This document shows, piece after piece, positions 2 through 41,990 of a stretch of 64,000 bases of DNA. Every line of letters starts with the position of its first letter. The stretch's first letter is position 1. The stretch is from Candidatus Latescibacterota bacterium (GTDB taxonomy: Bacteria; Latescibacterota; UBA2968; UBA8231), in assembly GCA_965215195.1 (NCBI GenBank), contig CBDCDC010000002.1, positions 1,888,001-1,952,000 of the forward strand, written 5' to 3'. The position numbers were made by a program, and so were the translations under genes. The notes below the pieces were generated by a model. That model saw only the letters and a program-made list of their open reading frames with translations. It was not told the DNA's origin and did no database searches.

Positions 2-1054
2 TTCATTGTCGATTGGGAAGAGGCGTTTCTAACCTACGATTCAGAGCCGCCCGAATTTGTCTATGGCATTGACTTCAACAACAACAACGTACCCGACTTC
101 CGCGAAAACGACGATAAGCCGGACTACCCTTACCCACGCGACCAAAAGGGCCAGCACATCTTCCTCCGCTACGACCGCTTGGGGCGCTTGGGCAAGTTCA
201 TCACCCTAGGCCGCTACGACAACAGCCAGATCGCCGGCCCGGGTAAGTCCGAGTCGCTGTACTTCCGCTACGCATACTCAGTGGAAAAGCGCGGCGTTGG
301 CGCACTGAACATCAACTACGACGCCAAGCAGGTCAAAGACGACATCCCAGACCACACCTACGTGTACCAAGTGCCCATTGACGATATAGAGGTCATCAAC
401 TGGTTTAACGAGCCGGACGGCCCGCCCGAGCAGGCGGGCTTCTGGCGGCCGGCGACGCCGGACGAGCTGTTGATGCGCGACAGCTTTGTGCATCTCCTCT
501 TTTTCGACAGCACCTATCAGGGGTTCCGCGGCTTCAACATTGAAAACGGCTTTCTGTGGCAGCGCAACAGCCAAGCCGAACTTGAGCTCGCAGACGGCAG
601 CGGGCTGTTGCAGCCCCAAGACGTGCGCTCGCGTTTTTCCATTGTCAACAAGATCGACTATACCCATAGCTGGGGTGCTTTCAGCGTCACGCCTAAGTTA
701 AAGCATCGGACGATCGTTGAGCAGGTCGATAGCGAAGACGCGCCGCGGAAATCGTACAGCGACTTCATCCCCATCGTAATGGGGCAGTACAAGCTCACGC
801 CCAAGACCAGCTTTCAGCTAGGCGTACAGGGGCTGCCCTTGCTGCCGTTTAAGCACTGGGATCGCGCCTTTGAGGACGGGACGTACAGCCAGACCGATTA
901 TCTGGCCATGCTGCGCATCACCGCAGACTACTTTGGCATCCGCGACAATTCGATCTTCTTCGGCTACCAGCGCACGCGGCGGGACTTTAGCCATGCCGGG
1001 CGGCCCGACAGCAAGCAAGGCATCCTCTTCGTGGAACTGATATCCCCCTTCTAA
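2..1054 (+). CDS. C-terminal part of a large Asp-rich putative outer-membrane beta-barrel protein (paralog of 5022..7964); 5' end lies outside the window
   Basis: The frame is open from base 2 (FIVDWEEAFLTYDSEPPEFVYGIDFNNNNVPDFRENDDKPDYPYPRD). It aligns with ...PDWTEPILFYDADPPDFIYGIDFNNNGVVDYRENDALPDYPYPRD of the 980-aa ORF and ends in Phe (ELISPF). Confidence 0.75.
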   Translation, partial: FIVDWEEAFLTYDSEPPEFVYGIDFNNNNVPDFRENDDKPDYPYPRDQKGQHIFLRYDRLGRLGKFITLGRYDNSQIAGPGKSESLYFRYAYSVEKRGVGALNINYDAKQVKDDIPDHTYVYQVPIDDIEVINWFNEPDGPPEQAGFWRPATPDELLMRDSFVHLLFFDSTYQGFRGFNIENGFLWQRNSQAELELADGSGLLQPQDVRSRFSIVNKIDYTHSWGAFSVTPKLKHRTIVEQVDSEDAPRKSYSDFIPIVMGQYKLTPKTSFQLGVQGLPLLPFKHWDRAFEDGTYSQTDYLAMLRITADYFGIRDNSIFFGYQRTRRDFSHAGRPDSKQGILFVELISPF

Positions 1055-1056
1055 GG

Positions 1057-1836
1057 GTGCGAATGCAGATGAGACCACTTGCAAAACACACTCACGTCCT
1101 CTTGTGCTTGGCGTTGGCCGCCGGGGGGTGCGCTACCCTCAGATCCCTCGAATCGCAGGCGCAGCAGGAGTACTTTATCGAGCTAGAGCCGGTCCTGGCC
1201 GCTGAAGATACCTATTACATTGATCCGATCGACAGCTCGGTCGTGTGGAGCGAGCAAGGGGTGCAAGTCAAGGTCAAGTTCTACGACGATGCCATGCTCG
1301 ACGCCGAATACGACACCCGCTTCACGCCCTATACGCTCACGGGAGTCGAAATCCCCGGTTTAGACTATACGCCGCCCCTGTGGACCGTTTTTGAAGTGAC
1401 AGTGATCAACCGCACCCGGGAGCGGGTGGAGTTAGATCCCACGCAGACCATTCTGCGCTTGGACGACGGCCGCCGACTGCTCTGCCGCCAAGGGGCGGGA
1501 AGTTGGTACGACAAGGACGAGTTCTTCGACTATTCCTATTTGAAGTGGGGAGGACAAGAAGGCAATGTGAAATACCATGCCAGCTTGGACCGCAACCCGA
1601 TCTGGGAGAAGAGCGAGTACCACCGGGAAAAGCCCGTGCGCAAAGGCTCGAGATACGTCGGCAAGTTGACCTTTCCACCGCTGCCGGCAGAGACTAGGGC
1701 GTTCACCCTCGAAGTAAACGACTTCATTCTGGCCTTTGATCGCTTTCAAGTAGGATACGGCAATCCGGTGGAATTTACCGACTTGAAATTCCGCTTCAAT
1801 GTCGATCACGGAGTGCGTTGGGTGGAGACTAAGTAA
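1057..1836 (+). CDS. Uncharacterised lipoprotein (paralog of 12871..13638)
   Basis: Signal peptide with lipobox AGGC. Shares IDPxDSS, YTPPxxTVFxVxVIN, ExDP, LxFxPL and FxLxFD motifs with the 12871 ORF. Confidence 0.75.
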   Translation: MRMQMRPLAKHTHVLLCLALAAGGCATLRSLESQAQQEYFIELEPVLAAEDTYYIDPIDSSVVWSEQGVQVKVKFYDDAMLDAEYDTRFTPYTLTGVEIPGLDYTPPLWTVFEVTVINRTRERVELDPTQTILRLDDGRRLLCRQGAGSWYDKDEFFDYSYLKWGGQEGNVKYHASLDRNPIWEKSEYHREKPVRKGSRYVGKLTFPPLPAETRAFTLEVNDFILAFDRFQVGYGNPVEFTDLKFRFNVDHGVRWVETK

Positions 1837-2493
1837 ATGAAAAAGATGGTGACATATCTCGGGATGACGCTGCTTGTCGGCTCAACGGGTTGTGCCTTGA
1901 AATACGAGGCCCTCAAGGACACTAGCGTGCCCAACCCGCCGTCGATGCCGGTCAAAATATACGTCAAGGAATTCCCGGTCGAGAGCAAGGCCAACGTGGT
2001 CGATCCGCGGACCGCCAATTCGGCCGGTAGTCAGGGAACCCAGTACATTACTAACGCCCTCGCCAGCGAGGGAAATCGCTTGGTGCAGATTACTCGGCCT
2101 TCGCGCATCGAGGATTTGTCTGGGGCTTTGTTGCGCGAACTGCGCAAGGACAAGGTGCGGATCTTCACGCAGACGGATCGGGTTGAGGTGCTAGACGAAG
2201 ACAGCGTCCGACAAGTGAGCAATCCCTTTGCGCTGGTGTCAGCGGACTCAGAAGAGGCCGACTTGGAAATTAGCGGCACGGCTGTGATTACCAGTCAGCG
2301 GGTGCGCAAAGTATTCTCCCCGCAGACGCAAAGGGTGCAGGTTGAGGTCGCAGTCAGGGATCTCAAAACCGGCAAAGTGAGCAAGAAAAGCCCGGTCGAT
2401 GCCGGCGTTGTCATGACCTTCAACTCGCGGGAGTTGGAGGAAGCCCTCGCCATTGCCGTGGTGACCAGCCTGACGCAGAAACTGCTGTTCTGA
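1837..2493 (+). CDS. Uncharacterised lipoprotein
   Basis: MKK + hydrophobic stretch + STGC lipobox; start directly abuts the previous stop codon. Confidence 0.7.
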   Translation: MKKMVTYLGMTLLVGSTGCALKYEALKDTSVPNPPSMPVKIYVKEFPVESKANVVDPRTANSAGSQGTQYITNALASEGNRLVQITRPSRIEDLSGALLRELRKDKVRIFTQTDRVEVLDEDSVRQVSNPFALVSADSEEADLEISGTAVITSQRVRKVFSPQTQRVQVEVAVRDLKTGKVSKKSPVDAGVVMTFNSRELEEALAIAVVTSLTQKLLF

Positions 2494-2494
2494 A

Positions 2495-4141
2495 GTGCTG
2501 AGGCTGGGCGCACTCTTGCTCTTGCTCGAATTCAGTCCGTGCCGTGCTGAATTAAAGACTTGGGTAGTGGACGCGGTCGATACATTTGCCTTGGGAACGA
2601 CCCAAGGCGTACAGGTGCATCCCGATAGCCTCGTCATTTTGGCGCAATTAGACGAGGATGTAAACGTGGCCTTGGGACGACCAGTGATAGACGATTTTGA
2701 CAAGCCTGTGCCCCTGACTGACGGCGCGATTGACCTCGTGCGCAGCGAGTGGATCTCGGGCACCAATCACGTGTTCGACAAGCAGTTTACCGTCGATCTC
2801 GGCTTGGACCGGGCGATCAAGCGGGTGCGAGTGCTGGCCGGCGAGACGGCCCTGAACCAGCCCGAGTATTTCATGCGTGGGTACAGGCTCGAAACAGCCA
2901 CCCAAGCGGCACCGCAAGTCTGGCATCTGTTGGCGGAACAGCCGGACAATTTCGTCCTCAATGTAGATACGAGCGCAGATTCTACTTGGGCCGCGACCAA
3001 CGAGCGCGGCGCGGCGATCCCGCGCGAAGGTCGCTTCGTGCGGCTGACCCTGATCCGCCAAGACCGCAGCAACTGGGTCGCCATCGGGGAAATCGAGGTG
3101 TTCGGCGCGGGCTACGTTAGCGAAGGCTTCATAGAGGATAGCTTCGTCCCGCCGACTCCGGTCAACGTAGGGCAGATTCGTTGGCAAGCAGAGCGCCCGG
3201 AGCGCACGGGCATTGAGTTGCAGGTGCGCGGACCCACCGCGGAGCCTTGGCAAAGCCTTGCAGCGCACACGGACGAAGAATTTTTCTACAGCGGAGACGA
3301 GCCGGTCGCGCAGTTGGCATACCGGGCCCGCCTGACGAATTCGGCTCCCTTTGTCAGCCCGGCGCTCGAGCGCGTCGCCATGGACTACGATCCAGTCTTG
3401 GTCGCCCAGCAACTCGTGGCAGAGGTGGTCGCATCCGATTCGCTGCGCAAGGGCGAGGAAGCGACCCTGATTTACCGAGTGGAGATCGCGGCTGGCGTCG
3501 ATGATTACGGGGTCGATCTCTTGCGCGTACAAGGCCCCTTGCTCCGCGTAACCGCCGTGCGCGTCAATGGTCGAGAACTCGCGCCTACCGAGGGCTACAC
3601 TTGGGGCCCGACGCCGGATCGGGAGGGGATGGTAGTAGAGCTTGCCCCCGGCGAGCAAATCAACGCGCTGGCGACCGTCGAAATTGAAGGGTCGGCGCTC
3701 TTTGTGCGCGACAAGACCACTATGCATTTTGCGGCTGGCAACAAGGCCCAAGGCGACCGAGATGGGTACGTGAACTGGCAGCAGGGGCGAGAAATGTCGG
3801 GTGCCACTTGGACGGTACTGGCGGCGGGGACGCCGTTGCAGCTTTTGGGCGAAGTGCAGGTGCAGCCGCGCCCGTTCTCTCCGTTTGCGGACGAATATGC
3901 GCGCTTTGCCTTTGTCGTCGGCAATATCGAGGCGGGCCGGGAAGTCGTGCTAAAAATTTACAACCTGACCGGTCGGCCGATTCGCCAGTTGGCGCAGACC
4001 GGAAGTGCCCGCACCTATCAGTTCGAGTGGGACGGCCGCGATGGGAGCGGTCGCGTTGTCGAGCCGGGGCTCTATCTATACGAGGTTGGGATAGAAGCAA
4101 GCGGCAAGGCGCACCGAGGTACTTTTGTGGTGGCGTACTAG
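2495..4141 (+). CDS. Secreted protein with a discoidin/F5-8C-like N-terminal domain and a C-terminal FlgD-Ig domain
   Basis: Signal peptide; FTVDLG...IKRVRV...RFVRLT...AIGEIEVFG discoidin pattern; C-terminal PRPFSP...KIYNLTGRPIRQL...WDGRDGSGRVVEPGLYLY FlgD-Ig pattern. Confidence 0.8.
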   Translation: MLRLGALLLLLEFSPCRAELKTWVVDAVDTFALGTTQGVQVHPDSLVILAQLDEDVNVALGRPVIDDFDKPVPLTDGAIDLVRSEWISGTNHVFDKQFTVDLGLDRAIKRVRVLAGETALNQPEYFMRGYRLETATQAAPQVWHLLAEQPDNFVLNVDTSADSTWAATNERGAAIPREGRFVRLTLIRQDRSNWVAIGEIEVFGAGYVSEGFIEDSFVPPTPVNVGQIRWQAERPERTGIELQVRGPTAEPWQSLAAHTDEEFFYSGDEPVAQLAYRARLTNSAPFVSPALERVAMDYDPVLVAQQLVAEVVASDSLRKGEEATLIYRVEIAAGVDDYGVDLLRVQGPLLRVTAVRVNGRELAPTEGYTWGPTPDREGMVVELAPGEQINALATVEIEGSALFVRDKTTMHFAAGNKAQGDRDGYVNWQQGREMSGATWTVLAAGTPLQLLGEVQVQPRPFSPFADEYARFAFVVGNIEAGREVVLKIYNLTGRPIRQLAQTGSARTYQFEWDGRDGSGRVVEPGLYLYEVGIEASGKAHRGTFVVAY

Positions 4142-4985
4142 CGTCCTATTGCTGGCCCTCGTCCCCCCGGTCGGCGCTGCTTTTGAATTTGCGGGACAGG
4201 GGGCCCAGAGCACGGCACTGGGCCGAGCTTTCGCCGCCCGCATTCAGACAGCTGAGGCCGTTTGGTACAATCCGGCTGGCAATGCCCAGCAGCAGAAGTG
4301 GCAGGCTGGCACGACCCACGCGTTGCTCTATCCCGGGTTGGACCAAAGCCCAGCCCTAAACGGCTTGTCAGTGGCCGGCCCCTTGCGGGGCGGCGGCTTC
4401 CAACTGGGCCTTTCGTTTTTAGGGGCCGATGGCTGGCGCGAAGAAGTGATTGCCTTGGGCTACGGGCGGCCGTTGCACGAGCGATTCGCCTTGGGCGGCG
4501 GCTGGCGCACCAGCGCTTGGCAAGCGGGCGATCTGTCGCACCGGGCTTGGCATTTCGATGTAGGGGCGACTTGGGAAGTGGGTTTCATACACCCGCGGGC
4601 GTACCTGCGATTGGCGTTGGTCGCCAAAGGCTTAAACGGGGCCAATATCGCAGCGGGCGGCCAAGCTACAGGCAAAGAAAAGCCAGCCGTGGTTGCGGCG
4701 GCCTTGCTCAACGTGGCGGGCCGGGAGGTCCTACTCGACATTGAGCGCCGCGAGGGGCGAACCGAGTTCAGAATGGGGTACGAGACGCGGACGGTGAGCC
4801 TCAACGGCGCTCGGTTCCGCATGGGAGGAGCTGCGGTTGGGTCGGGTTTTGACGATAGAGAGCTCAACGTGGGGCTGGGCCACAACTATAAGCAATGGCA
4901 TTTCGATTATGCGTATTCCTACCCGCTGCACCTGTCCGGCTATGGAGGTGTGCATCGGTTCAGCGTTGGTTATCGCCAGCGCTGA
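4125..4985 (+). CDS. PorV/PorP-like outer-membrane beta-barrel protein
   Basis: N-terminal GAQSTALGRAFAA...AVWYNPAG resembles the PorV/FadL GARxxGMGxA...NPAG motif; C-terminal FDYAY...HRFSVGY strands. Confidence 0.7.
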   Translation: MWWRTSVLLLALVPPVGAAFEFAGQGAQSTALGRAFAARIQTAEAVWYNPAGNAQQQKWQAGTTHALLYPGLDQSPALNGLSVAGPLRGGGFQLGLSFLGADGWREEVIALGYGRPLHERFALGGGWRTSAWQAGDLSHRAWHFDVGATWEVGFIHPRAYLRLALVAKGLNGANIAAGGQATGKEKPAVVAAALLNVAGREVLLDIERREGRTEFRMGYETRTVSLNGARFRMGGAAVGSGFDDRELNVGLGHNYKQWHFDYAYSYPLHLSGYGGVHRFSVGYRQR

Positions 4986-5021
4986 GTTGGAATGCGACTG
5001 AAGACCGGATCTCTACACTGA

Positions 5022-7964
5022 ATGAGGATAGCTGCCATGAGTAGTAATGCGAGAAAAAGCCTGGTGAGGAGCGCGCTACTAGCGTTTGTTGGGTTGGGAA
5101 TGCTGGGTGCCGAAGCCGCAGCGCAGACCTTTCTGCGCAACCGGGATTTCCTCAACCTCGGCCATCCCGAACCGTATTTGAACTACGGGCGCAAGGAGTA
5201 CGATCCCTATCCTTCGGTGATCAACGCACGCAATCGCTACGACCGCTTAGGCAATTACCTGTCGCGCGGATTCAATGTCTTCACTTGGGAATTTTCCCGC
5301 CCCGGGGAAAGTAATATCAACACCCGTACGGCCCAGTACTTGGGATGGTTCGCCAACCTGGTGATGCTCAACGACTCGTACAAGGGTTGGAACTACCGCG
5401 TGACCTTGGGCGAGGACATCCGCGCCAAGTTTTCAGATCTGACCTTTAGCGACCCGCGCTTCTTTGGCATCCTGCTCGACGGCGCTTCCTCGGACAACAG
5501 GTTCACCCTGATGCTGAGCCAAGGCGGCGACCTGTTAAACGCCGCCAAGTTTTCGACCTTCAAAGCGACTCGGGAGACCTCACCGGTGTTGATCTTTGGC
5601 GGCCACTGGGAGACCAAGCTGGGCAATGTGCTGCGCATGGGTGCCACGTACTTCAACCAGCACATGGCCAATACGGCCGACGAGAACGGCTCCTTTCTCA
5701 AGGGCGATACCCCGTATAGCATGCTGCCGCCCTCTTTTATCGAAGTCATTGTCGAAGACGATTCGCCCGACGATATAGGCCGGGCGGCCACCGTCTATGA
5801 CGTGGATGTGGTGATCATCGGCGAGTCGCAGGGGCAGCGGGTGCGCCTGACCAGCATTGAAGGCGATCCCGAGTACGACTCGAGCCTAAAGATGATCGAT
5901 CCGGTTGGCGGGGCCGAGGGCGGGCTGACCATAGCCGGCGGCGACCAAGTGATCTTCCGCTTCCAAATGCCGCAATTCAACCTCCCGGATGCCGCGGAGT
6001 ACTCGGCCGATCCCGACGACTTTGTTCCGGGGCTGACGATGAGATCCGTGCGCTTCTTGGCCGATGTCGAGGGCGACTATCGCATTTTAGTGCGCCAACA
6101 GCACTTGTTCTTCGACCAGCGAGCCCACCAGAGAAACGTGGACAAAGTGGCCGAAGGGGACGACAGATACGTTCCGGGCGGCAGGAGCTACGTCAATCCT
6201 TTTACCGGCCTGAAAGGCGACGACGCAACCAAACCGCTCGAAGAGGTGCTGGCAGAAAATCCAGAAGCCTTTAATCAGTGGCCGGTGGTGCCGGAGCCGG
6301 GCACTACTCAGGCGTCGCCGTTTTTGCAGTACAAATGGGATCTGCTCGATCCGACCCGGGTAGGTTATACGGTCTTGCGCTCCGACGGCAGCGACTCGGG
6401 CCGCAAGGTAGTCGAGTTCGACTACGGCATCCCCACCGGTCAGGCCCTCTACGGGTTGGACTGGGACCTAAGCCTCAAAGGGCTAAAGGTAAAGGGCGAG
6501 CTGGTCGCCAATCCCCAGTACTTCCTCTTCCCGGTGGGCAGCAATGCCGGCAAGCGCTTTGACAAGCAGACCCTCGGCTATTTCCTCACGGCCCAAAAGG
6601 AAGTAGGCCCGCTCGAGATCGGGGGCGAAATTTTCAACCTAGATCCGGACTACAGCGGCAACTACGACAGCGACCGCGGCGGCGTGGCCTTCTTTAGCGA
6701 CGATTGCTTCGTGTGTCCACAGATGCAGGAAATGTCCGTGATGACCGACAATGACGACAACGACCAGTGGCCAGACGAGATGCTCAACGAGCTGCCCAGT
6801 GCCGAGAAGTCGGATTCGGGCATTTTTCCCGGCTTGGACGAAAACAACGACCTCATCCCGGACAGTGACCAGAATTTCAACGGCATTCCCGACTGGACTG
6901 AGCCAATCCTCTTTTACGACGCCGATCCGCCGGATTTCATCTACGGCATCGACTTCAACAACAACGGCGTAGTCGATTACCGCGAAAACGACGCCCTGCC
7001 CGACTATCCCTACCCGCGGGACCGCCGGGGGGGCCACTTCGTGGCCACCAAGAAAGGCTTGGGGCGCTGGGGCAAATGGGCCTCTGTAGGCTACTACACC
7101 ATAGAGGAGCCGGCCGGCGGCGGCGAGGCCAAGGCCCTGTACGCCCGCTATGAGCACAACTTCACCTCGCCCTATCTGGGGAAAATTCGCATCAACGAGG
7201 ACATCAAGCAGGTCCAAGACAACATCCGCGACGACGTGTACGTCTGGGAAGACGTGGGTTTTGCCCAGCGGATACCCAGCCCCTTCCCGCACTTGAAAGG
7301 TCCGATGATTGAGGCGCGGGATCTCAATTCGCAGATTTTTCCGCCAGATGTCGATCCCCTGAACATGCGCAATAGCTTGGTCAATACCTTGTTCATCAGC
7401 TCGACCTTTAGGCAGTTTTCCAACCTCAACGTCATCAACAACGTCCAGTGGATTCGCAACAGCCAAGCCGAGGACGAGTTCGACGACGGCACCCAACAGG
7501 CAGCCGGCGTGCTCTCGACCGTTACGGTGGTCAACCGGCTCGACTACACGATTAACGCCGGCAACCTGAACATCCGCCCGATGTTCAAGCACCTGTTCTT
7601 GCGCAAGCATTCAAGCGTACTCGAAGATGCGGGGGACGAAGACAACGGCATCATTGATTCGTTCTCGATTTACGCCCCGATAGTCAGGACCCGCTTTGAC
7701 CTGACGGCCAAGTCCAATCTGCAACTGGGCTTCCAAGGCTTCCCTTTCTGGCGACACACGAGTTTGGACCGCAAGGATGAGCACAACGACTTTAAGGAGT
7801 GGACGCTGGTGCTGATGATGAGCAACCGCTCGGATCACTACGGCTACAACCTCGCTTCCCAGTTCGGCTTTATCCGAACCAGCCGGGAGTACGACGATGC
7901 TACTCGCGCTTCGGATAGCTTCGACAACTCGCGCCTCTTCTTTGATATTGTGGCCGGGTTCTAA
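5022..7964 (+). CDS. Large secreted protein, putative outer-membrane beta-barrel with Asp-rich Ca-binding-like loops
   Basis: 980 aa; signal peptide ending AAA-Q; amphipathic strands; DNDDNDQWPD, GLDENNDLIPD, DQNFNGIPD and DFNNNGVVD motifs; terminal FDIVAGF. Confidence 0.7.
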   Translation: MRIAAMSSNARKSLVRSALLAFVGLGMLGAEAAAQTFLRNRDFLNLGHPEPYLNYGRKEYDPYPSVINARNRYDRLGNYLSRGFNVFTWEFSRPGESNINTRTAQYLGWFANLVMLNDSYKGWNYRVTLGEDIRAKFSDLTFSDPRFFGILLDGASSDNRFTLMLSQGGDLLNAAKFSTFKATRETSPVLIFGGHWETKLGNVLRMGATYFNQHMANTADENGSFLKGDTPYSMLPPSFIEVIVEDDSPDDIGRAATVYDVDVVIIGESQGQRVRLTSIEGDPEYDSSLKMIDPVGGAEGGLTIAGGDQVIFRFQMPQFNLPDAAEYSADPDDFVPGLTMRSVRFLADVEGDYRILVRQQHLFFDQRAHQRNVDKVAEGDDRYVPGGRSYVNPFTGLKGDDATKPLEEVLAENPEAFNQWPVVPEPGTTQASPFLQYKWDLLDPTRVGYTVLRSDGSDSGRKVVEFDYGIPTGQALYGLDWDLSLKGLKVKGELVANPQYFLFPVGSNAGKRFDKQTLGYFLTAQKEVGPLEIGGEIFNLDPDYSGNYDSDRGGVAFFSDDCFVCPQMQEMSVMTDNDDNDQWPDEMLNELPSAEKSDSGIFPGLDENNDLIPDSDQNFNGIPDWTEPILFYDADPPDFIYGIDFNNNGVVDYRENDALPDYPYPRDRRGGHFVATKKGLGRWGKWASVGYYTIEEPAGGGEAKALYARYEHNFTSPYLGKIRINEDIKQVQDNIRDDVYVWEDVGFAQRIPSPFPHLKGPMIEARDLNSQIFPPDVDPLNMRNSLVNTLFISSTFRQFSNLNVINNVQWIRNSQAEDEFDDGTQQAAGVLSTVTVVNRLDYTINAGNLNIRPMFKHLFLRKHSSVLEDAGDEDNGIIDSFSIYAPIVRTRFDLTAKSNLQLGFQGFPFWRHTSLDRKDEHNDFKEWTLVLMMSNRSDHYGYNLASQFGFIRTSREYDDATRASDSFDNSRLFFDIVAGF

Positions 7965-7983
7965 AGCTTAGGAGATCGACGCC

Positions 7984-10900
7984 ATGATTCTGGTAAATCT
8001 GCTGCTAATTGCAGCGGTCGGCGCGGCCGCCAGCCTGAGTACGCGCTTCTTCTCGCCGGTGGAATTGCAAGACCGCTTTGAGGAGGGGCAGAAGCTCTAT
8101 GCGCTAGGGGCCTACGACAAAGCCATTGAGCGCTATGAGGTCATTCTCTCCACCGAAAGCAACGCCATGATCAACGTGGAGGATGTAACCGTAGCGGTTG
8201 ACGAGTTCATCCTGCCGGTGCGCGTGGGTGCCACCTACCAGCTAGGCAATACCTACAACAAGCTCGGTCTGGAAAAATTGCAGCGCTCGCAGTTTTTGCG
8301 CTCGGAGAAAAAGGAGGCCGCGGCCGACGCTCGCTACGACGAGGCCCTGCAAGACCTCAACAAGAGCCGCGATCACTTCCGCACCCTGGCCGCAGACGAG
8401 CGCGTCGATAACCGCACCCGGGTGATGGCGCAGTACCAGATGATCCAGACGAGTTACCAGCTCAAGGAGTACGAGCAGGTCATTGAGGAAGGGGACGAGC
8501 TGCTGCACAGCTTCCCCCACAGCCTCTATGAAGCGTCCGTTCACTACGACCGCGCGTGGTCCTATTTTGAATTGGAGCGCTACGCGGAGGCCATCGCCAG
8601 CTTCAAGCAGGTCTTGGTCTTGGCCCCCAGAGGCTCCAACGCCGACCGCTCGCTCTTCCAGATCGCCGAGAGCTACGACAAGCTAGGGCAGTACGAAGAT
8701 GCGCTGGAGTACCTCGACCGCCTCGTCGCCCGCTACGACTTCGCGCAGATGACCGAGGAAGAAATCATCGAAATGACCACCCTCAAGCTCAAGGGTTTGG
8801 TCAAGGAGACCGCGCGCGAGCTAGTTGCCAAGGCCCACCTGAAAAAGGGCGATATCTACGCCCGCAACGGCGAGATCGAAAAGGCCCTCGCCGCCTATGC
8901 CGTGCTTCCGGCCGAATACGCGGCCGAGCCGGTCTTGGTGCAAAATAGCTATATCCGCACGGCCGAGTTGGTGCAGAAGGAGCAGGGCACGACAGCGGCC
9001 ATTGCCGCGTACAAGGACGCCATCGAAAAGGTTGAGGACAAGCTCTTTCAGGCCCGCACCCAGCTAACGGTCGCCCTGATGCTTTTCGACCAGGACGAGT
9101 ACCTCAAGTCGGCCCAGGAATACGAGATCTACCTCAACGCCTACGGCGACGTGGCCCAGCGCATTGGCTTCGACCGCTACAAGGTTCTCTTTCGCATCGC
9201 CCAGTGCCACCAAGAATACGGGCGGCAGATCCGCAGCGAGGACCCGGCTGGAGCGGACGCGGAAATCGCCGAGGCCCGCAAAAGCTACGACCAGCTCCTG
9301 AGCCAGCGCGCGGACAATTCCCTGATCCCGGACGTGCTTTTTAACGCCGGCTTTGCCAACCAGCTCCTAGAGAACGACCAAGCAGCTCAGCCCCTGTACC
9401 AGCGGTTAGTCGACGAGTATCCAGCGCATCCAGCGGCCCCCAACGGCCTTTTGCAGTTGGCCCGCATCGCCTATGCCGCATCCGAGCTCAAACGGGCCGA
9501 GGCGATTTATACGTCCTTCCTCGACCGCTTCCCGGATTCGGCACTGCGCAATACGACGCGGATGGAGCTGGGCCTCACCTACAAGCACCTCGAGGATACA
9601 GATAGCGCCATCGCCGCCTATGAGACGGTGGAAGCGGATTGGGACAAGTGGCCTACCGTGCAGGTCGAGTTGGCCGAGCTGTACATGGGCAAGCAAGAGT
9701 ACGCCAAGGCGCGTCAGGCCCTGTCTCGCGCCTTGGGCCGAGCCGGCGACGACACCCTAAGAGGCCAGATGCACTACACCTTGGCCCGGGTGCATTTTGC
9801 AGAGGACAATTTCGCCAGTGCGATCCGCGCTTGGGGCGAGGCCATTGCCCTGAATCCGCCCGCGCACCTCCTGCAAAACTCGCTGCTGGCGCGCGGCGGT
9901 GCGTATTACGAGGTCGCCAAACAGCAAGACGCGGTCGGCGACACGGCCGAGGCCCGCACGAGCTATGAGGCATCGCTGGAGGATATGAAGGCCCTGCTCG
10001 AAGGCGATCCCGCGCCCCAGATCAAGGACAGCGCCTTCCGCACGCTGGGGGCGGGCATGATCCGCTTGGGGCGGCAAGAAGAGGCGGCGCGGTACTACCA
10101 AGAGCTCATTGCCGCGTCGGCCGACCTCCAAGAGCAGGCCACCTTTAGCATGCTGCTGACCGAGCTGTACTACGATCAGCAGGATTTCGTCCAAGCCGAA
10201 AAATTCGCCCGCCAGCTCCTCGACATGCAGTTTGAAGACGACAATCAAGCTGGTTACTACCGCAAAGAACGCGCCTATTCCATCATCGGCAACGCGCTGC
10301 TACAGCAGCAGCAGTACGAGGAAGCCGCTCGCGTCTTTGCCCGAGGTCTCAAGCGCTATCCGAATTCGGGCGAGAGCGGCAACTTGGCCTTCTCCAAGGG
10401 TTTTGCCGAAATCAGCTACGGCGACTACGCCACCGCTGCCGAGAGCTTCCGGGCCTTTGTCCGCAAATATCCGCGCAATGCCAACCGCATTCACGGCCAG
10501 TACTATCTGGCCCACAGCCTCCAGGCCCTGACCCAGTTTGAGGAGGCTGCGGCCGCTTTTGCCGCGCTCGTCGAGCGCCATCCCCAGTCCCAATACGAGG
10601 AAGAAGCGCTTTTTCTCATTGGCGAAAACTACTACAACGAGCAGGCCTTTGCCGAAGCCGCGACCGCCTACCAAGTGCTCTTGGCCAAATATGCCCAAGG
10701 CCAATACGGCGGGTCGGCCCAGTACGCGTTGGCTTGGTCCTTCGTCGAACAAGAACAGATGGAGCAAGCAGTAGGCGCGATGCAAAACCTAGTGGCCAAT
10801 TACCCCGACAGCGAGTTCGCCCCCAAGGCGCAGTTTACCATTGGCGACTACTACTACAATATCCAGTCTTACGACGAGGCCATGGCCGCCTACAAGCAAG

Positions 10901-11256
10901 TAATCGAGCTATATCCCGGCTCTGAGGAGACGCCGAGGGCCATAGGTCTAGTGGAAGAGCTAAGCGAGATCCAAGCGAGCTTTAGCTACAACGAGGCCAT
11001 GAAGCTGTTTGAGGCCAAGGACTACGACCGGGCCGTGCCGGCCCTACAGGGGATTATCCGCGATTATCCCGGCACCCATACCGAGTTGGCCGCGTACTGC
11101 AACTTGGGGCTGGTCTATGAAATCACGCGCCAATGGTCGCAGGCCGTGGAAAACTATCAGGTAGTGGAAGAAAAGGGTGGGGACAAGGCGGAAAACGCCG
11201 ACGTGGTCAGTTTTGCCAAGCTGCACCGGGCGTGGATCGTCGAAAACCGGCTCTAG
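7984..11256 (+). CDS. Large TPR-repeat periplasmic protein (BamD/CpoB-like repeats)
   Basis: 1090 aa with many AxYxLG...A...Y...YP TPR units; N-terminal hydrophobic segment; GGAG RBS upstream. Confidence 0.85.
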   Translation: MILVNLLLIAAVGAAASLSTRFFSPVELQDRFEEGQKLYALGAYDKAIERYEVILSTESNAMINVEDVTVAVDEFILPVRVGATYQLGNTYNKLGLEKLQRSQFLRSEKKEAAADARYDEALQDLNKSRDHFRTLAADERVDNRTRVMAQYQMIQTSYQLKEYEQVIEEGDELLHSFPHSLYEASVHYDRAWSYFELERYAEAIASFKQVLVLAPRGSNADRSLFQIAESYDKLGQYEDALEYLDRLVARYDFAQMTEEEIIEMTTLKLKGLVKETARELVAKAHLKKGDIYARNGEIEKALAAYAVLPAEYAAEPVLVQNSYIRTAELVQKEQGTTAAIAAYKDAIEKVEDKLFQARTQLTVALMLFDQDEYLKSAQEYEIYLNAYGDVAQRIGFDRYKVLFRIAQCHQEYGRQIRSEDPAGADAEIAEARKSYDQLLSQRADNSLIPDVLFNAGFANQLLENDQAAQPLYQRLVDEYPAHPAAPNGLLQLARIAYAASELKRAEAIYTSFLDRFPDSALRNTTRMELGLTYKHLEDTDSAIAAYETVEADWDKWPTVQVELAELYMGKQEYAKARQALSRALGRAGDDTLRGQMHYTLARVHFAEDNFASAIRAWGEAIALNPPAHLLQNSLLARGGAYYEVAKQQDAVGDTAEARTSYEASLEDMKALLEGDPAPQIKDSAFRTLGAGMIRLGRQEEAARYYQELIAASADLQEQATFSMLLTELYYDQQDFVQAEKFARQLLDMQFEDDNQAGYYRKERAYSIIGNALLQQQQYEEAARVFARGLKRYPNSGESGNLAFSKGFAEISYGDYATAAESFRAFVRKYPRNANRIHGQYYLAHSLQALTQFEEAAAAFAALVERHPQSQYEEEALFLIGENYYNEQAFAEAATAYQVLLAKYAQGQYGGSAQYALAWSFVEQEQMEQAVGAMQNLVANYPDSEFAPKAQFTIGDYYYNIQSYDEAMAAYKQVIELYPGSEETPRAIGLVEELSEIQASFSYNEAMKLFEAKDYDRAVPALQGIIRDYPGTHTELAAYCNLGLVYEITRQWSQAVENYQVVEEKGGDKAENADVVSFAKLHRAWIVENRL

Positions 11257-11303
11257 CGAGCTTTCAACGCAACGCAAAGTAGGACACAATACGGGAGGTT
11301 GTA

Positions 11304-11978
11304 ATGGAGCAGAATTTTCTAGTCGACCAGTTTTTCAAGGGCGGGCCGATGATGTGGCCCATGTTGCTCTGCTTGCTGATCGCCCTAGCCATCATCATAG
11401 AACGACTGTGGCGTCTGCTGATGGTCCCGGGCGAACAGGAGGCCGAACAGTATCTCAACAAGGCCGAGGAAGTGCTCAAAAATCAAGGCGAAGGCGGGGC
11501 CGTCGAGCTATTCCGACAGGGCAGCGGCGTACTCAACTTCATCTTCGCCGCCTTGGTGAAGCGCTACGACACCTTAGTGCTGGAAAATCGCACGGACCTA
11601 GAGGACATGCGTCAGGAGTTGATCTTGGCCACGGAGGAGGCCGGCGAGATGTACTTAGGCCGCCTGCTCAACGCGCTCGGCACCATTGGCGTCCTCTCCC
11701 CGCTGATGGGGCTGTTGGGCACGATCATGGGTATGATTCACGCCTTTGACGCGATTGCCCGCGCCGGGGCCGGCGATCCAGCGGCCGTGGCCAGCGGCAT
11801 TTCCGAGGCCCTGATTACGACGGCCAGTGGCCTCATTGTCGCCATTCCGACCATCGTCTTCCACCGCTACCTCTCCGGCCGGGCGGAAAAGGTCTTCAAG
11901 AGCGTGGAGCTGTACTGCCACGCCTTCGCCAATACCCTGCTGGTGCGCTTCCAAGCCGGCCAGCAGGAAGCCAGCTAG
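11304..11978 (+). CDS. exbB: MotA/TolQ/ExbB proton channel protein
   Basis: GGPMMWP N-terminus; LGTIGVLSPLMGLLGTIMGMIHAF and GISEALITTASGLIVAIP motifs; GGAGG RBS. Confidence 0.92.
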   Translation: MEQNFLVDQFFKGGPMMWPMLLCLLIALAIIIERLWRLLMVPGEQEAEQYLNKAEEVLKNQGEGGAVELFRQGSGVLNFIFAALVKRYDTLVLENRTDLEDMRQELILATEEAGEMYLGRLLNALGTIGVLSPLMGLLGTIMGMIHAFDAIARAGAGDPAAVASGISEALITTASGLIVAIPTIVFHRYLSGRAEKVFKSVELYCHAFANTLLVRFQAGQQEAS

Positions 11979-11994
11979 GCAGAGAGACGCTGCA

Positions 11995-12414
11995 ATGCGG
12001 CAGAGACGAAAGAGCGGATTCGGCAAAAGCGCCTTCAAGGCCTCGGAGAATCCAGATCTGACTCCGCTGATCAACTGCATGTTCTTGCTGTTGGTTTTCT
12101 TTATGGTGGCGACCACTTTCGTCAACCCCAAGGGTCTGAGCGTAGATCTGCCGGGCGGCGAAGGCGAGTCGCGCGCGACCAAGGACATGAACATCGTGAT
12201 CGACCCAGACCAGACGATCCAAGTCAACGGCGAGGTCACGGACAAGGCGCGATTGGCCGAGAAGATCCGTCAGGTCATAGCAGCCGACAACACCAAGAAC
12301 GTGATCTTGGAGTCCGCGCGTTCCGTGCCTCACGCCTATGTGGTGCAGGTGATGGACATCGCCCGCGGCGAGGGCATTGAGGCCATTGCTTTCGCCAAGA
12401 GTGGAGAAGGATGA
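11995..12414 (+). CDS. exbD: ExbD/TolR family protein, variant with Asn at the conserved transmembrane Asp
   Basis: ATG at 11995 is in frame with the listed ORF; DLTPLINCMFLLLVFFMVATTF; C-terminal VVQVMDIARGEGI. Confidence 0.88.
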   Translation: MRQRRKSGFGKSAFKASENPDLTPLINCMFLLLVFFMVATTFVNPKGLSVDLPGGEGESRATKDMNIVIDPDQTIQVNGEVTDKARLAEKIRQVIAADNTKNVILESARSVPHAYVVQVMDIARGEGIEAIAFAKSGEG

Positions 12415-12839
12415 GCGGCATGGCTAAACGGAGGCAGTCGCTGGCCGAAAAAGCCGGCGAATTTGAACTGAACCTGACGCCGATGATAGACGCAGTGTTC
12501 CTGCTACTGATCTTCTTTATGACCACCACGGTCTTCGTCAAGGCCACTCAGGTCAAGATCGAGTTGCCCGACTCGGTCCAATACGACCAGCTAAAAGCAG
12601 AGAAGAAGCTGAATCTGCGCATCTCGAGCGAGGGCCAGCTCGAGATCAACGGGCAGCTCGTGGCCATGGGGCAGCTAGCCGGCTGGCTAGAGCGCGAGAA
12701 GATCCGCACCGGCTCTTCAACGCTGATTATCACCGCAGACGCCAATGCCGCGCACGGCCATATCATCGACGCGATGGAAACGGCCACCATGGCCGGCGTC
12801 GAACAGATCGACATTGAAACCGAGGAACCAACCAATTGA
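12411..12839 (+). CDS. exbD: ExbD/TolR family protein (canonical Asp)
   Basis: LNLTPMIDAVFLLLIFFMTTTVF; ITADANAAHG; ATGA overlap with the upstream exbD. Confidence 0.92.
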   Translation: MSGMAKRRQSLAEKAGEFELNLTPMIDAVFLLLIFFMTTTVFVKATQVKIELPDSVQYDQLKAEKKLNLRISSEGQLEINGQLVAMGQLAGWLEREKIRTGSSTLIITADANAAHGHIIDAMETATMAGVEQIDIETEEPTN

Positions 12840-12870
12840 CGGTAGCTAGCAAAAAGGGAGTTGCAATTTT

Positions 12871-13638
12871 ATGAGAGCGAGGTATGTGGCACTCCTCGGC
12901 TTAGTGGCGCTCGGGCTGGTCTGGAGCTGCGGGGGGCTGGTGCCGCCCCAACTCGTGTACGACCTGCACGTGATGCCCGTCCTGCCCGAGGGCCGCGGCG
13001 ATTACACCATCGACCCGGACGACAGCTCGATGGTCTTTAGCAAAGAGGGGCTTTTGATCCGGGTGCGGCACCTGAGCGACCCCGAGCTCAACGAGCGCTT
13101 CCCACCTCTGTACGACGGTCGCCACGTCAATCCCTACACCCGGGACGACATCGATCCCGAAAAGGGCTATACCCCCCCGCAGTTCACCGTCTTTGACGTC
13201 GAGGTCATAAACAAGACCTATGCGAAGATCGAATTCGATCCGGCCAAGGCGACCATGGAATCGGGCGGCGAGACCTATCGCTACTACGATCCCGGGCGCG
13301 AGGGGGCGGTCGTGTTGGGGGGCAACAGCTTCACCAAGTACTACAAAATGGAGCTGGGCACTTCGGGTAACGAGCGCGAAATCAACTTGGAGCGCATGGG
13401 CATTATCTACAAGACGGTCTTTCACCGCCATCGACCGATCTTCCGCGATAGCAGCCAAAAGGGCATGTTGGTCTTTGATCCGTTGCTGCCGGAAAACGAC
13501 GAGTTGCTGCTCACCTTCCGCGAATTCGTGCTTTCGTTTGACGCCAGCGGCAATCCAGAAGAGACCATTGACGTCGAGTTCCGCTTTGCGGTGAACCAAG
13601 GAACGAGGGAAAAGGCCAGAGCGGACGGGGCGGGTTGA
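12871..13638 (+). CDS. Uncharacterised lipoprotein (paralog of 1057..1836)
   Basis: Lipobox VWSC; collinear motifs with the 1057 ORF. Confidence 0.75.
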   Translation: MRARYVALLGLVALGLVWSCGGLVPPQLVYDLHVMPVLPEGRGDYTIDPDDSSMVFSKEGLLIRVRHLSDPELNERFPPLYDGRHVNPYTRDDIDPEKGYTPPQFTVFDVEVINKTYAKIEFDPAKATMESGGETYRYYDPGREGAVVLGGNSFTKYYKMELGTSGNEREINLERMGIIYKTVFHRHRPIFRDSSQKGMLVFDPLLPENDELLLTFREFVLSFDASGNPEETIDVEFRFAVNQGTREKARADGAG

Positions 13639-13693
13639 GTCCCCGGCACTGCTTCTGCATCTGGATAGCGCGTATGGCAGGATGGCTCATTGC

Positions 13694-13727
13694 GAGGAGC
13701 TGGACCTTCCGTCTAGCTCCTCTTTTT
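13694..13727 (+). terminator. Putative intrinsic terminator
   Basis: GAGGAGCTGGAC-CTTCC-GTCTAGCTCCTC forms a 12-bp stem (one G-U pair) followed by TTTTT. Confidence 0.75.
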
Positions 13728-15383
13728 ATGCACAAACCGCTGTTGGCCGGGCTAATCGTCGGGGCCGGCATTAGCTGCGGCACCGAGCGGCCGGACGACG
13801 CCCATCTGCTGGCTGAGGTCGGGGAGGTCGAAATTACTGCGGCCGATCTGCGCGCCTTTGAGGCCAATCTCAAAGTGACCGCCACGCGCTCGCAGCACCG
13901 GGACAATTTGCAGACGCTCATTGACCGCCAAGTGTTGCTTTTGGCGGCCAACGAGCGGGGGTTGCAGCGCGACGAAGCGGTCTTAGCCGAGCTCGCCCAG
14001 CGCGAAACCAAGGCCCTCGCCGACGCCATGTTGCGGCGCAACGTCGCGGACAAGGTCGCGGTTAGTGAGGACGACATCGCAAAAGCCTACGCGCGGCCGG
14101 GGTGGGGCGAAAAGGTCGTCACCATGGAGATCTTTGTGCCCAACCGGGAACAGGCGCGTCAGGTGCAGGCGCTTTTGGCGCAGGGCGCGGACTTTGCCGA
14201 AGTAGGTCGTCAATTCGCGGCCGATCCCTATTACGGCGTACATACCGGCGAAATCCGGCGGCTGGCCTATTCGCCCTTCGACAGCCCCCGCGCCCTAGCC
14301 CAAGCGGTCTTTGCCCTGCCCGTGGGCGGCGCGACCGAGCCGCTTCCCTTGCACGGCGGCTTCGTCATCGCCAAAGTGGCCGAGCGCGGCCGCGCTGAAT
14401 TGGTCGAGGTCGAAGAAGGCATCCGCGAGGCACTCCACGACGAGCAGCAAAAGCAACTGCGCGAATCGTACCTGCGGCACCTCAAGTGGGATTTGGACAC
14501 GGTTTTTGACGCCGAGGGCATGGATATAGTGGTCGGCGTCTTACAGGGCGCGGTCCGCTATGCGGATTTGGACGCGGCCCAGCGCCAGCACCCGGTCTAT
14601 GCTTTCGAGGGCTTGCAGATGGATGTGGCCGAGGTGGTAGAGGCCGTGCGGCCAGCGGGCCAACTGTGGCCCGAAGCCACAGCCGACTCCGTCAACGAGA
14701 AGTTATCTGAGAGTCACTTCCCCACCCGCATCATGGCCCACGACGCCCGGCGCAAGGGCCTCGATAAAACCGCGGCTTTTGTGCGGTCGCAGGCTCTGGC
14801 GTTGGGCAACCTGATGCTGATAAAGCTGCGCGAGCAAATTTTGGCCGAGGCGCCCGAGCCGACCGAGGACGACCTACGGGCCTTCTACGAGGAGCACAAG
14901 CGCCGCTTCCGCAGCCCGCCCCACGCGCAATTGGAGGAAATTTTGCTCGAAACCCCGAGCGAGGCGCGCCAGATCGCGGCTCAGATTGAGGCGGGTGCCG
15001 AGTGGGCGGAGCTAGCCCGCGCCCACAGCCGGCGGCGCAACGCCGAAGACGGCCTCCTGTACGTCTCTCAATCACAGGCCCCCTTTTTGGGGGAGGCGTG
15101 GATGAACGCGGTGATGAACGCCGAGCTGCACCAGCTCCAAGGGCCGATCCAAGCGAGGGGAGGCTATTCGCTCTTCCGGGTCATTGAACGATACCCAGAG
15201 ATTTATCACGGCCTAGCGCTAGAGCGGGTGCGAAAGGCAGTGGTGCGGGACGTGCGGGAGCGCATTGAGCGGGAGTATTTCAACGCCTATCTGCGGGATT
15301 TGCGCCAAAAATACGCCGCGCAGATCGACGTGCATGAAGAGCACCTGCGGTACTTGGACGACGAGAGCAAACGAGGGGAGTGA
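13728..15383 (+). CDS. SurA/PpiC-like peptidyl-prolyl isomerase lipoprotein with two parvulin-like domains
   Basis: Probable start MHKPLLAGLIVGAGISC (lipobox); LAEVGEVEIT, GADFAEVGRQF, GAEWAELARAHS and GPIQARGGYSLFRV motifs. Confidence 0.75.
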   Translation: MHKPLLAGLIVGAGISCGTERPDDAHLLAEVGEVEITAADLRAFEANLKVTATRSQHRDNLQTLIDRQVLLLAANERGLQRDEAVLAELAQRETKALADAMLRRNVADKVAVSEDDIAKAYARPGWGEKVVTMEIFVPNREQARQVQALLAQGADFAEVGRQFAADPYYGVHTGEIRRLAYSPFDSPRALAQAVFALPVGGATEPLPLHGGFVIAKVAERGRAELVEVEEGIREALHDEQQKQLRESYLRHLKWDLDTVFDAEGMDIVVGVLQGAVRYADLDAAQRQHPVYAFEGLQMDVAEVVEAVRPAGQLWPEATADSVNEKLSESHFPTRIMAHDARRKGLDKTAAFVRSQALALGNLMLIKLREQILAEAPEPTEDDLRAFYEEHKRRFRSPPHAQLEEILLETPSEARQIAAQIEAGAEWAELARAHSRRRNAEDGLLYVSQSQAPFLGEAWMNAVMNAELHQLQGPIQARGGYSLFRVIERYPEIYHGLALERVRKAVVRDVRERIEREYFNAYLRDLRQKYAAQIDVHEEHLRYLDDESKRGE

Positions 15384-17366: not shown

Positions 17367-17377
17367 GGGGTCGCACG

Positions 17378-18208: not shown

Positions 18209-18275
18209 GCCGTGTGTTAGAAATCTGGGAGCAGCCGCACGATGGCCCCCAAGGGTTTTCAGGCCGCTTCTTAGG

Positions 18276-21607: not shown

Positions 21608-21670
21608 AGACGGCTGGAGTCGGGTGTCGCGTAGTAAGCAGTAAATATACAAAAAAATGAACGCTGTAAA

Positions 21671-24235: not shown

Positions 24236-24264
24236 ATGATGTCGATAATGATACTACATGTCAA
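24236..24264 (-). promoter_or_regulatory. Putative sigma70 promoter of hicAB
   Basis: TTGACA-17 nt-CATCAT on the minus strand, ending 6 nt before the hicA ATG. The spacer contains an imperfect palindrome that could be an operator. Confidence 0.55.
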
Positions 24265-24392
24265 GCAAAAGCGGCTCCTCCGTCGAGTTGTTATCACGGT
24301 CAACAGGCACGCCGCCGCCCGCGCTTGAACCCCCTCCGTCGATACTCTATCTTGACAGCCGCTCCTCCCATTCCACAGACAAAGCAAATCCC

Positions 24393-32312: not shown

Positions 32313-32314
32313 GG

Positions 32315-32508: not shown

Positions 32509-32578
32509 TATTCCGCTCCTTGGATTTGCTCAAATACTCACGATCTTAGATGAGGATGTCAAAGTCAGCAGGCATCAT
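32498..32578 (-). pseudogene. Collapsed second copy of the AlbA-ATPase gene (ends only)
   Basis: Reads MMPADFDILI*DREYLSKSKERNNGED, matching the start (MTPADLDILI) and end (RDYLHKFKGRDNGED) of 33421..34887. Confidence 0.75.
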
Positions 32579-41984: not shown

Positions 41985-41990
41985 AGAAAC

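Follow-up and report, generated by a model that had tools for sequence, protein, structure and literature searches.

Only a small number of machines bring energy from the inner membrane to the outer one, namely Ton, Tol, the flagellar stator, Agl-Glt and the type IX secretion system (T9SS), and each of them, once discovered, altered the understanding of envelope biology. The locus considered here lies at the beginning of a 64,000-nt stretch of Candidatus Latescibacterota bacterium (contig CBDCDC010000002.1), which is called the window in the following and to which all coordinates refer. It encodes giant outer-membrane barrels together with lipoproteins, a very large tetratricopeptide repeat (TPR) protein and an ExbB-ExbD-ExbD motor. 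Judged from its sequence the locus is a copy of a real, conserved and undescribed module which belongs to the motor-plus-transducer class of trans-envelope systems, and whose new protein families are the barrel and a candidate force transducer carrying the domain DUF4159. We consider it highly probable that the architecture, taken alone, is that of a conserved motor-linked module spanning the envelope. The wider proposal, which places the locus in a multi-copy family of outer-membrane modules that are coupled to the proton motive force, occur in Latescibacterota and related lineages and import glycans, is tentative and falls a little short of an even chance.

The described systems which come closest are the Ton system, Agl-Glt/Nfs and a group of clusters published in 2025. 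In Agl-Glt the motor consists of AglR together with AglQ/AglS, the TPR protein GltD forms a pillar, GltG/J are TonB-like, GltK is a lipoprotein and CglB an adhesin, and the paralogous barrels GltA/B have N-termini which become ordered on the TPR protein GltC (available parts of PMC3169522 and PMC11761067). The same parts of these papers describe a multi-copy "core complex", aglRQS plus gltDEGC, of unknown function in proteobacteria, polysaccharide degraders and Fibrobacter. The clusters from 2025 combine a gene encoding a TPR protein, one resembling tolQ and two resembling tolR with a gene for a non-TonB "vWA" transducer, again with unknown function; Latescibacterota, Gemmatimonadota and DUF4159 are unmentioned in the main text of that report, supplements aside (PMC12204202). 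On cellulose, a rise is reported in Fibrobacter for the TPR/OmpA genes and for a cluster ExbB-ExbD-ExbD-TonB (available part of PMC6851124), and for Latescibacteria ordinary porins and TonB-dependent import have been predicted, with no such module in the available part of that study (PMC4454575). A first-pass annotation of the window had suspected an undescribed system. This agrees with the literature on Latescibacteria and Gemmatimonads in connection with Exb, TPR or T9SS, in whose main texts (not supplements) no published description of the module was found; for DUF4159 the Pfam paper was the only publication found.

The same annotation had listed eleven tightly packed, co-oriented envelope genes followed by a SurA-like gene, and these are present as listed (Table 1). 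The eleven genes occupy 2-13638 (+) with intergenic gaps of -17 to +47 bases, and all genes of the locus are on the + strand. It had also recognised no TonB/TolA, TolB, Pal or plug-containing receptor, and the domain scans bear this out: among 58 window ORF (open reading frame) queries none matched TonB_C, TolA, TolB, OmpA/Pal, Plug or TonB_dep_Rec. Rfam and tRNA scans of the window gave no match. The window start cuts the 5' end of the locus and leaves the first barrel, BarA, incomplete; in the orthologous locus L001 BarA is 989 aa long (L001:3053-6022). It shares an acidic loop motif with the second barrel, BarB, and both end in Phe. The gene for the peptidyl-prolyl isomerase (PPIase) probably starts with the ATG at 13728 rather than with the TTG at 13635, as the hairpin between the LipA2 and PPIase genes indicates that the TTG-started ORF over-extends the gene.

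Conservation of this arrangement was assessed in a census of 68 loci with barrel relatives, in which ORFs were called and searched with the window proteins and then with hidden Markov models built from the matches. The closest barrel relatives (92-94% identity) are found on Candidatus Latescibacterota chromosomes; those at greater distance are labelled as Handelsmanbacteria, Gemmatimonadota and some few other groups, labels which belong to metagenome-assembled genomes (MAGs) and may include binning errors. Locus L031, for instance, is from a MAG with the label Gemmatimonas phototrophica, while closed chromosomes with the orthologous locus include OZ253462.1 and OZ244561.1. The complete gene order of the window is present in ten loci at ~92% identity and is also kept in loci where barrel identity is 57-63% (L006-L011, L023, L027), which places the arrangement beyond chance. 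Over the 68 loci the families found beside the barrel are the lipoprotein LipA in 54, the TPR protein in 53, the protein with a T9SS-type C-terminal domain (CTD protein) in 52, DUF4159 in 33, PPIase in 27, ExbB in 25, ExbD in 24, and the PorV-like small barrel and the lipoprotein LipB in 19 each. The TPR gene follows directly after a barrel gene in 44 loci, the CTD protein and a barrel adjoin in 32, and TPR and ExbB in 20. The gene set is thus co-conserved across related genomes, by synteny in the orthologous loci and as a module in the census, which is what its description as one system in the first-pass annotation called for. The idea of a single dedicated machine has to be given up, since the loci form a multi-copy family which resembles polysaccharide utilization loci: chromosome OZ244561.1 carries at least four loci with at least seven barrels among the best 80 of 580 matches.

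Table 1. Coordinates of the locus in the window, with the main evidence for each feature
Feature	Position	Strand	Evidence
BarA, last 350 aa of a giant outer-membrane barrel paralogous to BarB	2..1054	+	37% identity to BarB, E 3e-66
LipA, beta-sandwich-family lipoprotein, lipobox AAGGC	1057..1836	+	34% identity to LipA2, E 3e-32
LipB, third lipoprotein, lipobox STGC	1837..2493	+	without known family
CTD protein, 548 aa, secreted, discoidin-like, T9SS-type Ig-like C-terminal domain	2495..4141	+	FlgD_ig
PorV/PorQ/PorP-superfamily-like small barrel, 286 aa	4125..4985	+	NF033709 match
BarB, 980-aa plugless barrel, predicted ~26 strands	5022..7964	+	AlphaFold2 model, Foldseek
TPR protein, 1090 aa, N-terminal hydrophobic anchor	7984..11256	+	TPR families, best 1e-52
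ExbB/TolQ-family proton channel	11304..11978	+	PF01618 4.4e-29, 101.3 bits
ExbD1, Asn at the usual transmembrane Asp site	11995..12414	+	PF02472 6e-26, 91.4 bits
ExbD2, transmembrane Asp kept ("MIDA")	12411..12839	+	PF02472 1.5e-29, 103.1 bits
LipA2, beta-sandwich lipoprotein	12871..13638	+	AlphaFold2 model; paralogue of LipA
Terminator-like hairpin closing the eleven-gene unit	13694..13722	+	12-pair stem then T-run; consensus match only
Lipoprotein PPIase, two parvulin domains, SurA/PrsA/PpiD-like	13728..15383	+	Rotamase_2 8.5e-23, Rotamase 2.5e-12; lipobox GISC after ATG

Other loci, often on the same chromosomes, repeat a shorter gene grammar: one or more discoidin/FG-GAP proteins with a T9SS-type CTD, one to three barrels, a TPR protein of ~1100 aa and a beta-sandwich lipoprotein, sometimes with ExbB-ExbD-ExbD and a PPIase. 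Barrel trees (FastTree with 115 long barrels, and an IQ-TREE quick search with 37 chosen rows of the 115) separate at least six paralogous locus types, each of six being one side of a branch. Where a locus has two or three barrels, each barrel position forms a separate old clade, and such position-specific paralogues suggest that the barrels may assemble into hetero-oligomers. Four of 11 paralogous loci are flanked by genes of carbohydrate-active enzyme (CAZyme) type (GH130, a rhamnosidase-like gene or an RG lyase), by sulfatases or by sugar ATP-binding cassette (ABC) genes. In the Pfam scans of the 101 ORFs of these 11 loci there is no TonB_C or Plug, and the SusD family has no match in them or in the window. 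ExbB-ExbD-ExbD occurs in four of the six locus types; in three of them it lies downstream of the TPR gene, and in the fourth upstream in divergent orientation, so the link between motor and module proposed in the first-pass annotation is found in deep locus types with differing arrangements. This recurrence bears on the simplest explanation of the data, namely that the neighbourhood is accidental, that ExbBD serves ordinary TonB-dependent receptors encoded elsewhere and that the barrels are unrelated porins. TonB, ExbB, ExbD and Plug-domain proteins have indeed been reported in Latescibacteria single-cell genomes (available part of PMC4454575). An accident is nevertheless extremely improbable with a linkage which recurs in four deep locus types with differing gene orders, and with eleven genes separated by at most 47 bases and closed by one terminator-like hairpin.

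The DUF4159 (PF13709) protein is the recurrent member of the module which has no gene in the window. In the orthologous loci its gene is situated ~2.2 kb upstream of BarA on the opposite strand (L018:2286-3497 (-), L026:6160-7341 (-)), with two genes in between, one for a secreted CBM9-like protein and one for an unknown protein of 341 aa; in L001 and nine other loci the DUF4159 copy is cut at the locus edge. As the window begins inside BarA, the upstream gene was outside the view of the first-pass annotation. In L018 and L026 the DUF4159 gene is followed by HEAT-repeat and FG-GAP/ASPIC genes. Among loci L032, L019 and L022 some have several DUF4159 genes (four in L032), each placed before its own CTD protein, and others have runs of three FG-GAP/FlgD-Ig proteins.

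All 30 full-length DUF4159 copies have the same layout: the N-terminus is a short basic tail, after which come a single hydrophobic helix, a linker with a 70-residue stretch containing 33-51% Pro/Lys/Arg/Glu, and a conserved C-terminal domain of ~250 aa. TonB/TolA transducers are marked by an N-terminal helix with an SHLS/His motif ahead of an extended Pro-rich linker; here a His is present in the helix of 18 of the 30, often as S-x-x-x-H. PF13709 is the only Pfam match of these proteins; TonB_C was not found, NCBIfam and PDB sequence searches gave no match, and the ESM Atlas gave nothing usable beyond PF13709. With hhalign, DUF4159 aligned significantly neither with a vWA protein nor with the GldG-like protein encoded in the window. 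By its sequence features the DUF4159 protein is a protein of TonB/TolA topology with a different C-terminal domain, and falls outside the TonB/TolA family. The first-pass annotation had considered that a tonB gene might lie just upstream: a gene of TonB/TolA topology does lie upstream in the orthologous loci, and its domain is DUF4159, not that of TonB. The annotation had furthermore cast the TPR protein as the trans-periplasmic coupler. The TPR protein is conserved and adjoins the barrel, so a part in the coupling can stand; that it is the sole coupler is unlikely, since a DUF4159 transducer recurs in the module and makes a scaffold the more likely role. As force transducer the DUF4159 protein is more likely than the TPR protein by itself.

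Concerning the motor, ExbB and both ExbD proteins exceed the Pfam gathering scores (PF01618 and PF02472), and all matches to the NCBIfam equivalogs TolQ, ExbB, TolR and ExbD are under the cut-off, which allows membership to be stated at the family level only. The Asp in the transmembrane helix of ExbD/TolR is essential and protonatable. ExbD1 of the window, like that of 16 orthologous loci, has the sequence "LINC" with Asn in place of this Asp, while ExbD2 retains it; in the paralogous loci both ExbD copies have the Asp. The pattern implies that ExbD1 and ExbD2 would form an obligate asymmetric heterodimer in the orthologous locus type.

A barrel family profile made from 25 barrels and searched against 1.84 billion representatives gives 1059 clusters (50% identity) that reach E<=1e-3, 343 of them with E<=1e-30, and among at least 630 pattern matches listed for species-representative genomes there are at least 580 barrel relatives, from which the 68 loci of the census were taken. 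The family is nevertheless unannotated: BarB has no Pfam match even at E 10 and no NCBIfam match, and in the ESM Atlas it falls with unnamed clusters only, the closest named cluster being DUF6029 with a weak 0.89. Longer fused forms of the barrel were not found, which is weak evidence. The AlphaFold2 model of BarB, based on 25 sequences, is of medium confidence (mean pLDDT 71.4, pTM 0.71). The barrel begins near residue 70 and has no N-terminal plug; residues 24-68 are disordered in the model (pLDDT <50) and yet conserved in sequence (Y.NY.R..Y..Y ... YDrlG). Inserts are formed by a beta-sandwich (residues ~239-360) and by helices, and residues 541-667, which are modelled with low confidence, contain the majority of the family's invariant residues. 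In the invariant acidic loops (residues ~576-664) these occupy the metal-binding positions of 12-residue EF-hand-like loops, such as D644-x-N-x-N-G-x-x-D-x-x-E655, and the loops may therefore bind Ca2+. With strands counted from the DSSP string, coordinates not being viewed, and with short turns taken as periplasmic, BarB would tentatively have ~26 strands and three long inserts, including the acidic loops, on the outside.

In Foldseek the best match of BarB is MtrB (E 1e-10, TM 0.33), followed by Deinococcus SlpA (E 6e-10 to 4e-9, TM 0.15-0.17) and, at lower ranks, by TonB-dependent transporters (TBDTs), LptD, ushers and porins. On the strength of the model this is a generic likeness among large barrels, the closest folds having 26-30 strands. 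An MtrB-like electron conduit was considered and rejected, as the CxxCH motif is present in none of 15 locus proteins. The SlpA matches raise the question whether the barrels might be abundant structural proteins of the SlpA kind, tethering or stabilising the envelope, with a Tol-like ExbBD/TPR system encoded beside them. A weak SlpA_C match below the cut-off of 35 bits is present in two barrel homologues only (4e-5 and 7.5e-6; 22.7 and 25.1 bits), and the repeats of the TPR protein are of the YbgF/CpoB type. A structural role would on the other hand leave the absence of an SLH domain and of a coiled coil, the start of the barrel at residue ~70 and the low SlpA TM-scores unaccounted for; TolB and Pal were not found in the window, and diversification into many copies with lectin-like partners is unexpected of a structural protein. 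We therefore regard it as very improbable. The first-pass annotation had also left room for the 980-aa protein and its paralogue to be ordinary TonB-dependent receptors or enzymes; AlphaFold2, Foldseek and Pfam agree in making them plugless large barrels of an unannotated family.

The commonest partner of the barrel is the LipA family, in which the lipobox Cys is invariant in 30 members and which has no Pfam or NCBIfam match. The AlphaFold2 model of LipA2 (pLDDT 90.6) is a confident beta-sandwich behind a lipid anchor; Foldseek gives no PDB match at E<=1e-3, the closest structures being sandwiches of the YjhA, MPT63 and ApaG types. A TonB-like protein or a protein of known function was considered for LipA and ruled out by the confident beta-sandwich and by the lack of a PDB fold or sequence match. 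LipB is confined to the orthologous locus type, where it always follows LipA, and for LipB and the PorV-like barrel alike PDB sequence and profile searches gave nothing significant. The TPR protein has YbgF-type repeats in 8 stretches. In 47 of 47 homologues, judged by eye, an N-terminal hydrophobic stretch has a nearly uncharged n-region; it is presumed to be an inner-membrane anchor, in which case ~1050 TPR residues would be periplasmic. As a TonB homologue the TPR protein was rejected, since it has no Pro-rich linker or C-terminal domain and only TPR repeats after the anchor.

The CTD protein of the window matches FlgD_ig just above the cut-off (2.3e-6, 27.9 bits against 27) and F5/8C below it (17.7 bits against 28.2), and has weak matches to CHU_C and to the C-terminus of PorU. 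In the paralogous loci the corresponding proteins combine F5/8C or FG-GAP with FlgD_ig, CHU_C or Por_Secre_tail, F5/8C and the others being above their cut-offs, and in the Pfam scans of the 101 ORFs no catalytic domain was recognised in the proteins upstream of the barrels. These CTDs are the starting point for a model of export or surface display analogous to T9SS. It postulates that the barrels translocate or hold the CTD proteins, that the PorV-like barrel is a shuttle or anchor, that the PPIase is a chaperone, and that ExbBD and DUF4159 deliver the power. A cargo gene placed beside that of its own outer-membrane partner resembles the pairs of type-B CTD and PorP-SprF, and here the CTD protein is directly upstream of a barrel in the 32 loci counted above and directly upstream of PorV-like barrel plus barrel in 18. 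The PorV-like barrel matches NF033709 (E 9e-11, 41.9 bits, under the curated cut-off of 90), and 9 of 10 orthologues match the PorV/PorQ family at E<=1e-3 (best 8e-12). A barrel of ~26 strands would be wide enough for folded domains, and a dedicated PPIase accompanies the module in 27 of 68 loci. It should be noted, however, that only one locus type has the PorV-like gene, that CTD proteins also occur away from barrels (e.g. L058:20285-21286), for which a general route must exist, that TonB-like transducers are best known from import, and that a sortase-like PorU was not seen in the window. Export in this general form we consider somewhat unlikely. A more specific version, in which the barrels are SprA-independent translocons driven by ExbB-ExbD1/2-DUF4159, export the neighbours with FlgD-Ig/CHU_C tails and use the acidic loops as a Ca2+-dependent dock for the tail, is distinctly unlikely; if true, it would account for the handling of a widespread CTD class in lineages without a classical T9SS.

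The model we prefer, capture and energised import, hypothesizes that the ExbBD motor, with an ExbB channel of the pentamer type and an ExbD1/ExbD2 heterodimer, pulls the DUF4159 transducer, with the TPR protein as a scaffold spanning the periplasm. The C-terminal domain of the transducer, or the TPR protein, would grip the conserved disordered N-terminal extension of the barrel, which would be an analogue of the TonB box or of the GltC-binding N-termini of GltA/B, and this engagement would gate the barrel. The EF-hand-like acidic loops, probably outside, would bind Ca2+ and serve as a gate or a docking site, and the discoidin/FG-GAP neighbours on the cell surface would set the specificity of each paralogous locus. 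The function would then be the capture and import of large glycans or glycoconjugates, an analogue of SusC/SusD-TBDT built from unrelated parts. Import is favoured by the many diversified copies, by the lectin-type partners without enzymes, by the TonB-like grammar and by the occasional CAZyme and sulfatase flanks. The model is least secure in the direction of transport, which is not decidable from sequence, and export would fit nearly as well.

Several observations weigh against this model. The T9SS-cargo-type CTDs, the PorV/PorQ-like barrel and the dedicated PPIase fit export equally. DUF4159 is not present in 35 of the 68 loci and ExbB not in 43, many of these being truncated at a contig end or at the limit of the 10-kb flank. 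The DUF4159 copy of the orthologous locus type, to which the window belongs, has no His in its helix, and together with the missing Asp in ExbD1 this means that this locus type may work differently. The neighbouring genes for CAZymes and sulfatases are not many, and genes of that type are common in these genomes. Finally, the number of strands and the side on which the loops lie come from a DSSP string, not from coordinates, of a barrel model of medium confidence.

The same parts list can be read as a machine for adhesion, gliding or surface assembly of the Agl-Glt/Nfs kind, in which the motor moves or tensions a barrel platform exposing a discoidin/FG-GAP adhesin. Parallel parts are TolQ with two TolR, a TPR pillar of ~1100-1200 aa, paralogous barrels whose periplasmic N-termini are disordered, outer-membrane lipoproteins and a propeller adhesin (available parts of PMC11761067 and PMC3169522), and a GldA/F/G-like ABC transporter is encoded in the window. 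At variance with such a machine, the barrels have ~980 aa and are not small and OmpA-like, a TonB-like C-terminal domain is missing from the transducer, the TPR protein is not tied to GltD by any NCBIfam or Pfam match (no Glt sequence being compared), and six or more locus types suit a diversity of substrates better than one motility engine. It is an improbable explanation.

The rest of the window contains genes which are not part of the module. Directly after the PPIase gene follows a gene for a 659-aa polytopic membrane protein (15387-17366) without family match and present in the orthologous locus type only (10 of 68 loci). No other protein of the neighbourhood is as well conserved: its identity is 76-97% where the barrel has 57-93%, and it has a weak similarity (E 0.003) to a DUF6785/DUF6784 protein at 21671-23602. 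An FGE-sulfatase-type lipoprotein (17288-18208) is weakly GldK/GldJ-like (83.7 bits against the GldK cut-off of 350), and the 287-aa protein after it (17288-19043 region) has weak receptor-L/LRR-like matches. Two tandem 405-aa NHL-repeat propeller proteins are encoded at 19221-21652 (-), and a 1582-aa protein with PA and M28 peptidase domains and an FtsX-type permease domain at 24258-29006. The region 29041-35348 has a lower G+C (0.55-0.59) and contains genes that are likely to be mobile or to serve defence: PIN, a ResIII helicase-like protein of 946 aa, RadC, an AlbA_2/HATPase_c_4/Fic-C protein and HicB-like antitoxins. A Bat-type aerotolerance cluster occupies 36551-52179 (-), with MoxR AAA, DUF58, BatA-like and a second VWA protein, TPR, BatD and TPR-SH3; the cluster is broken by genes for a GldA/GldF/GldG-like ABC transporter, for which Gld models are the best matches though under the equivalog cut-offs, and for a DUF4340 protein.

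The module supplies a complete candidate parts list including an outer-membrane partner, which was wanting in the 2025 account of non-TonB transducers. It offers a candidate role for DUF4159 and brings out a large barrel family which was previously unannotated. In Latescibacterota and in MAGs labelled Gemmatimonadota the module may be a main route for uptake or display of polymers, as Sus-like loci are in Bacteroidota. It also makes testable the long-standing question whether TonB-like force transduction can operate with another C-terminal domain and a plugless barrel.

Compared with the known systems, the module shares with Ton/SusCD the ExbB/ExbD families, a partner of TonB topology, many paralogous loci with their own surface binders and a conserved N-terminal segment of the barrel. 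It differs in having DUF4159 in place of TonB_C, in having no Plug/TonB_dep_Rec (PF07715, PF00593) and no SusD-like protein, and in its two dissimilar ExbD genes (one without Asp here) and a 1100-aa TPR protein as an obligate neighbour. A TBDT barrel has 22 strands against ~26 predicted for the module barrel, whose most conserved part is the internal acidic loops. MtrB, LptD and SlpA are the best fold matches with 26-30 strands, at TM <=0.33, and the module barrel has neither the LptD jellyroll nor SLH.

The analogy to T9SS drawn in the first-pass annotation holds for the CTDs of the neighbouring proteins (FlgD_ig, CHU_C and Por_Secre_tail) and extends to a PorV/PorQ/PorP-like small barrel, a proton-driven motor and a large barrel. 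It is weakened by the occurrence of the PorV-like barrel in 19 of 68 loci only, with a match under the cut-off; moreover the motor is ExbBD in place of GldLM, the barrels belong to a family without sequence relationship to T9SS, and SprA/Sov, PorU and GldKLMN were not recognised within the window. Agl-Glt/Nfs and the clusters of PMC12204202 are closer. With Agl-Glt/Nfs, as far as the available parts of the sources describe it, the module has in common TolQ with two TolR, a very large periplasmic TPR protein and an inner-membrane transducer with a Pro-rich linker, which is a match at the level of architecture, and in addition interdependent paralogous barrels with disordered N-termini, lipoproteins, a surface adhesin and several copies in polysaccharide degraders. 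It departs from them in its unrelated and much larger barrels (~980 aa), in the C-terminal domain of DUF4159 and in that no cytoplasmic platform genes were seen. With the clusters of PMC12204202, whose main text is the basis of the comparison, it shares the gene grammar itself, two heterologous TolR/ExbD proteins and a protein of TonB topology with a non-TonB globular domain. That domain has the vWA fold in those clusters, for which no outer-membrane partner was named; in the module it is DUF4159, and the putative partner is the giant barrel.

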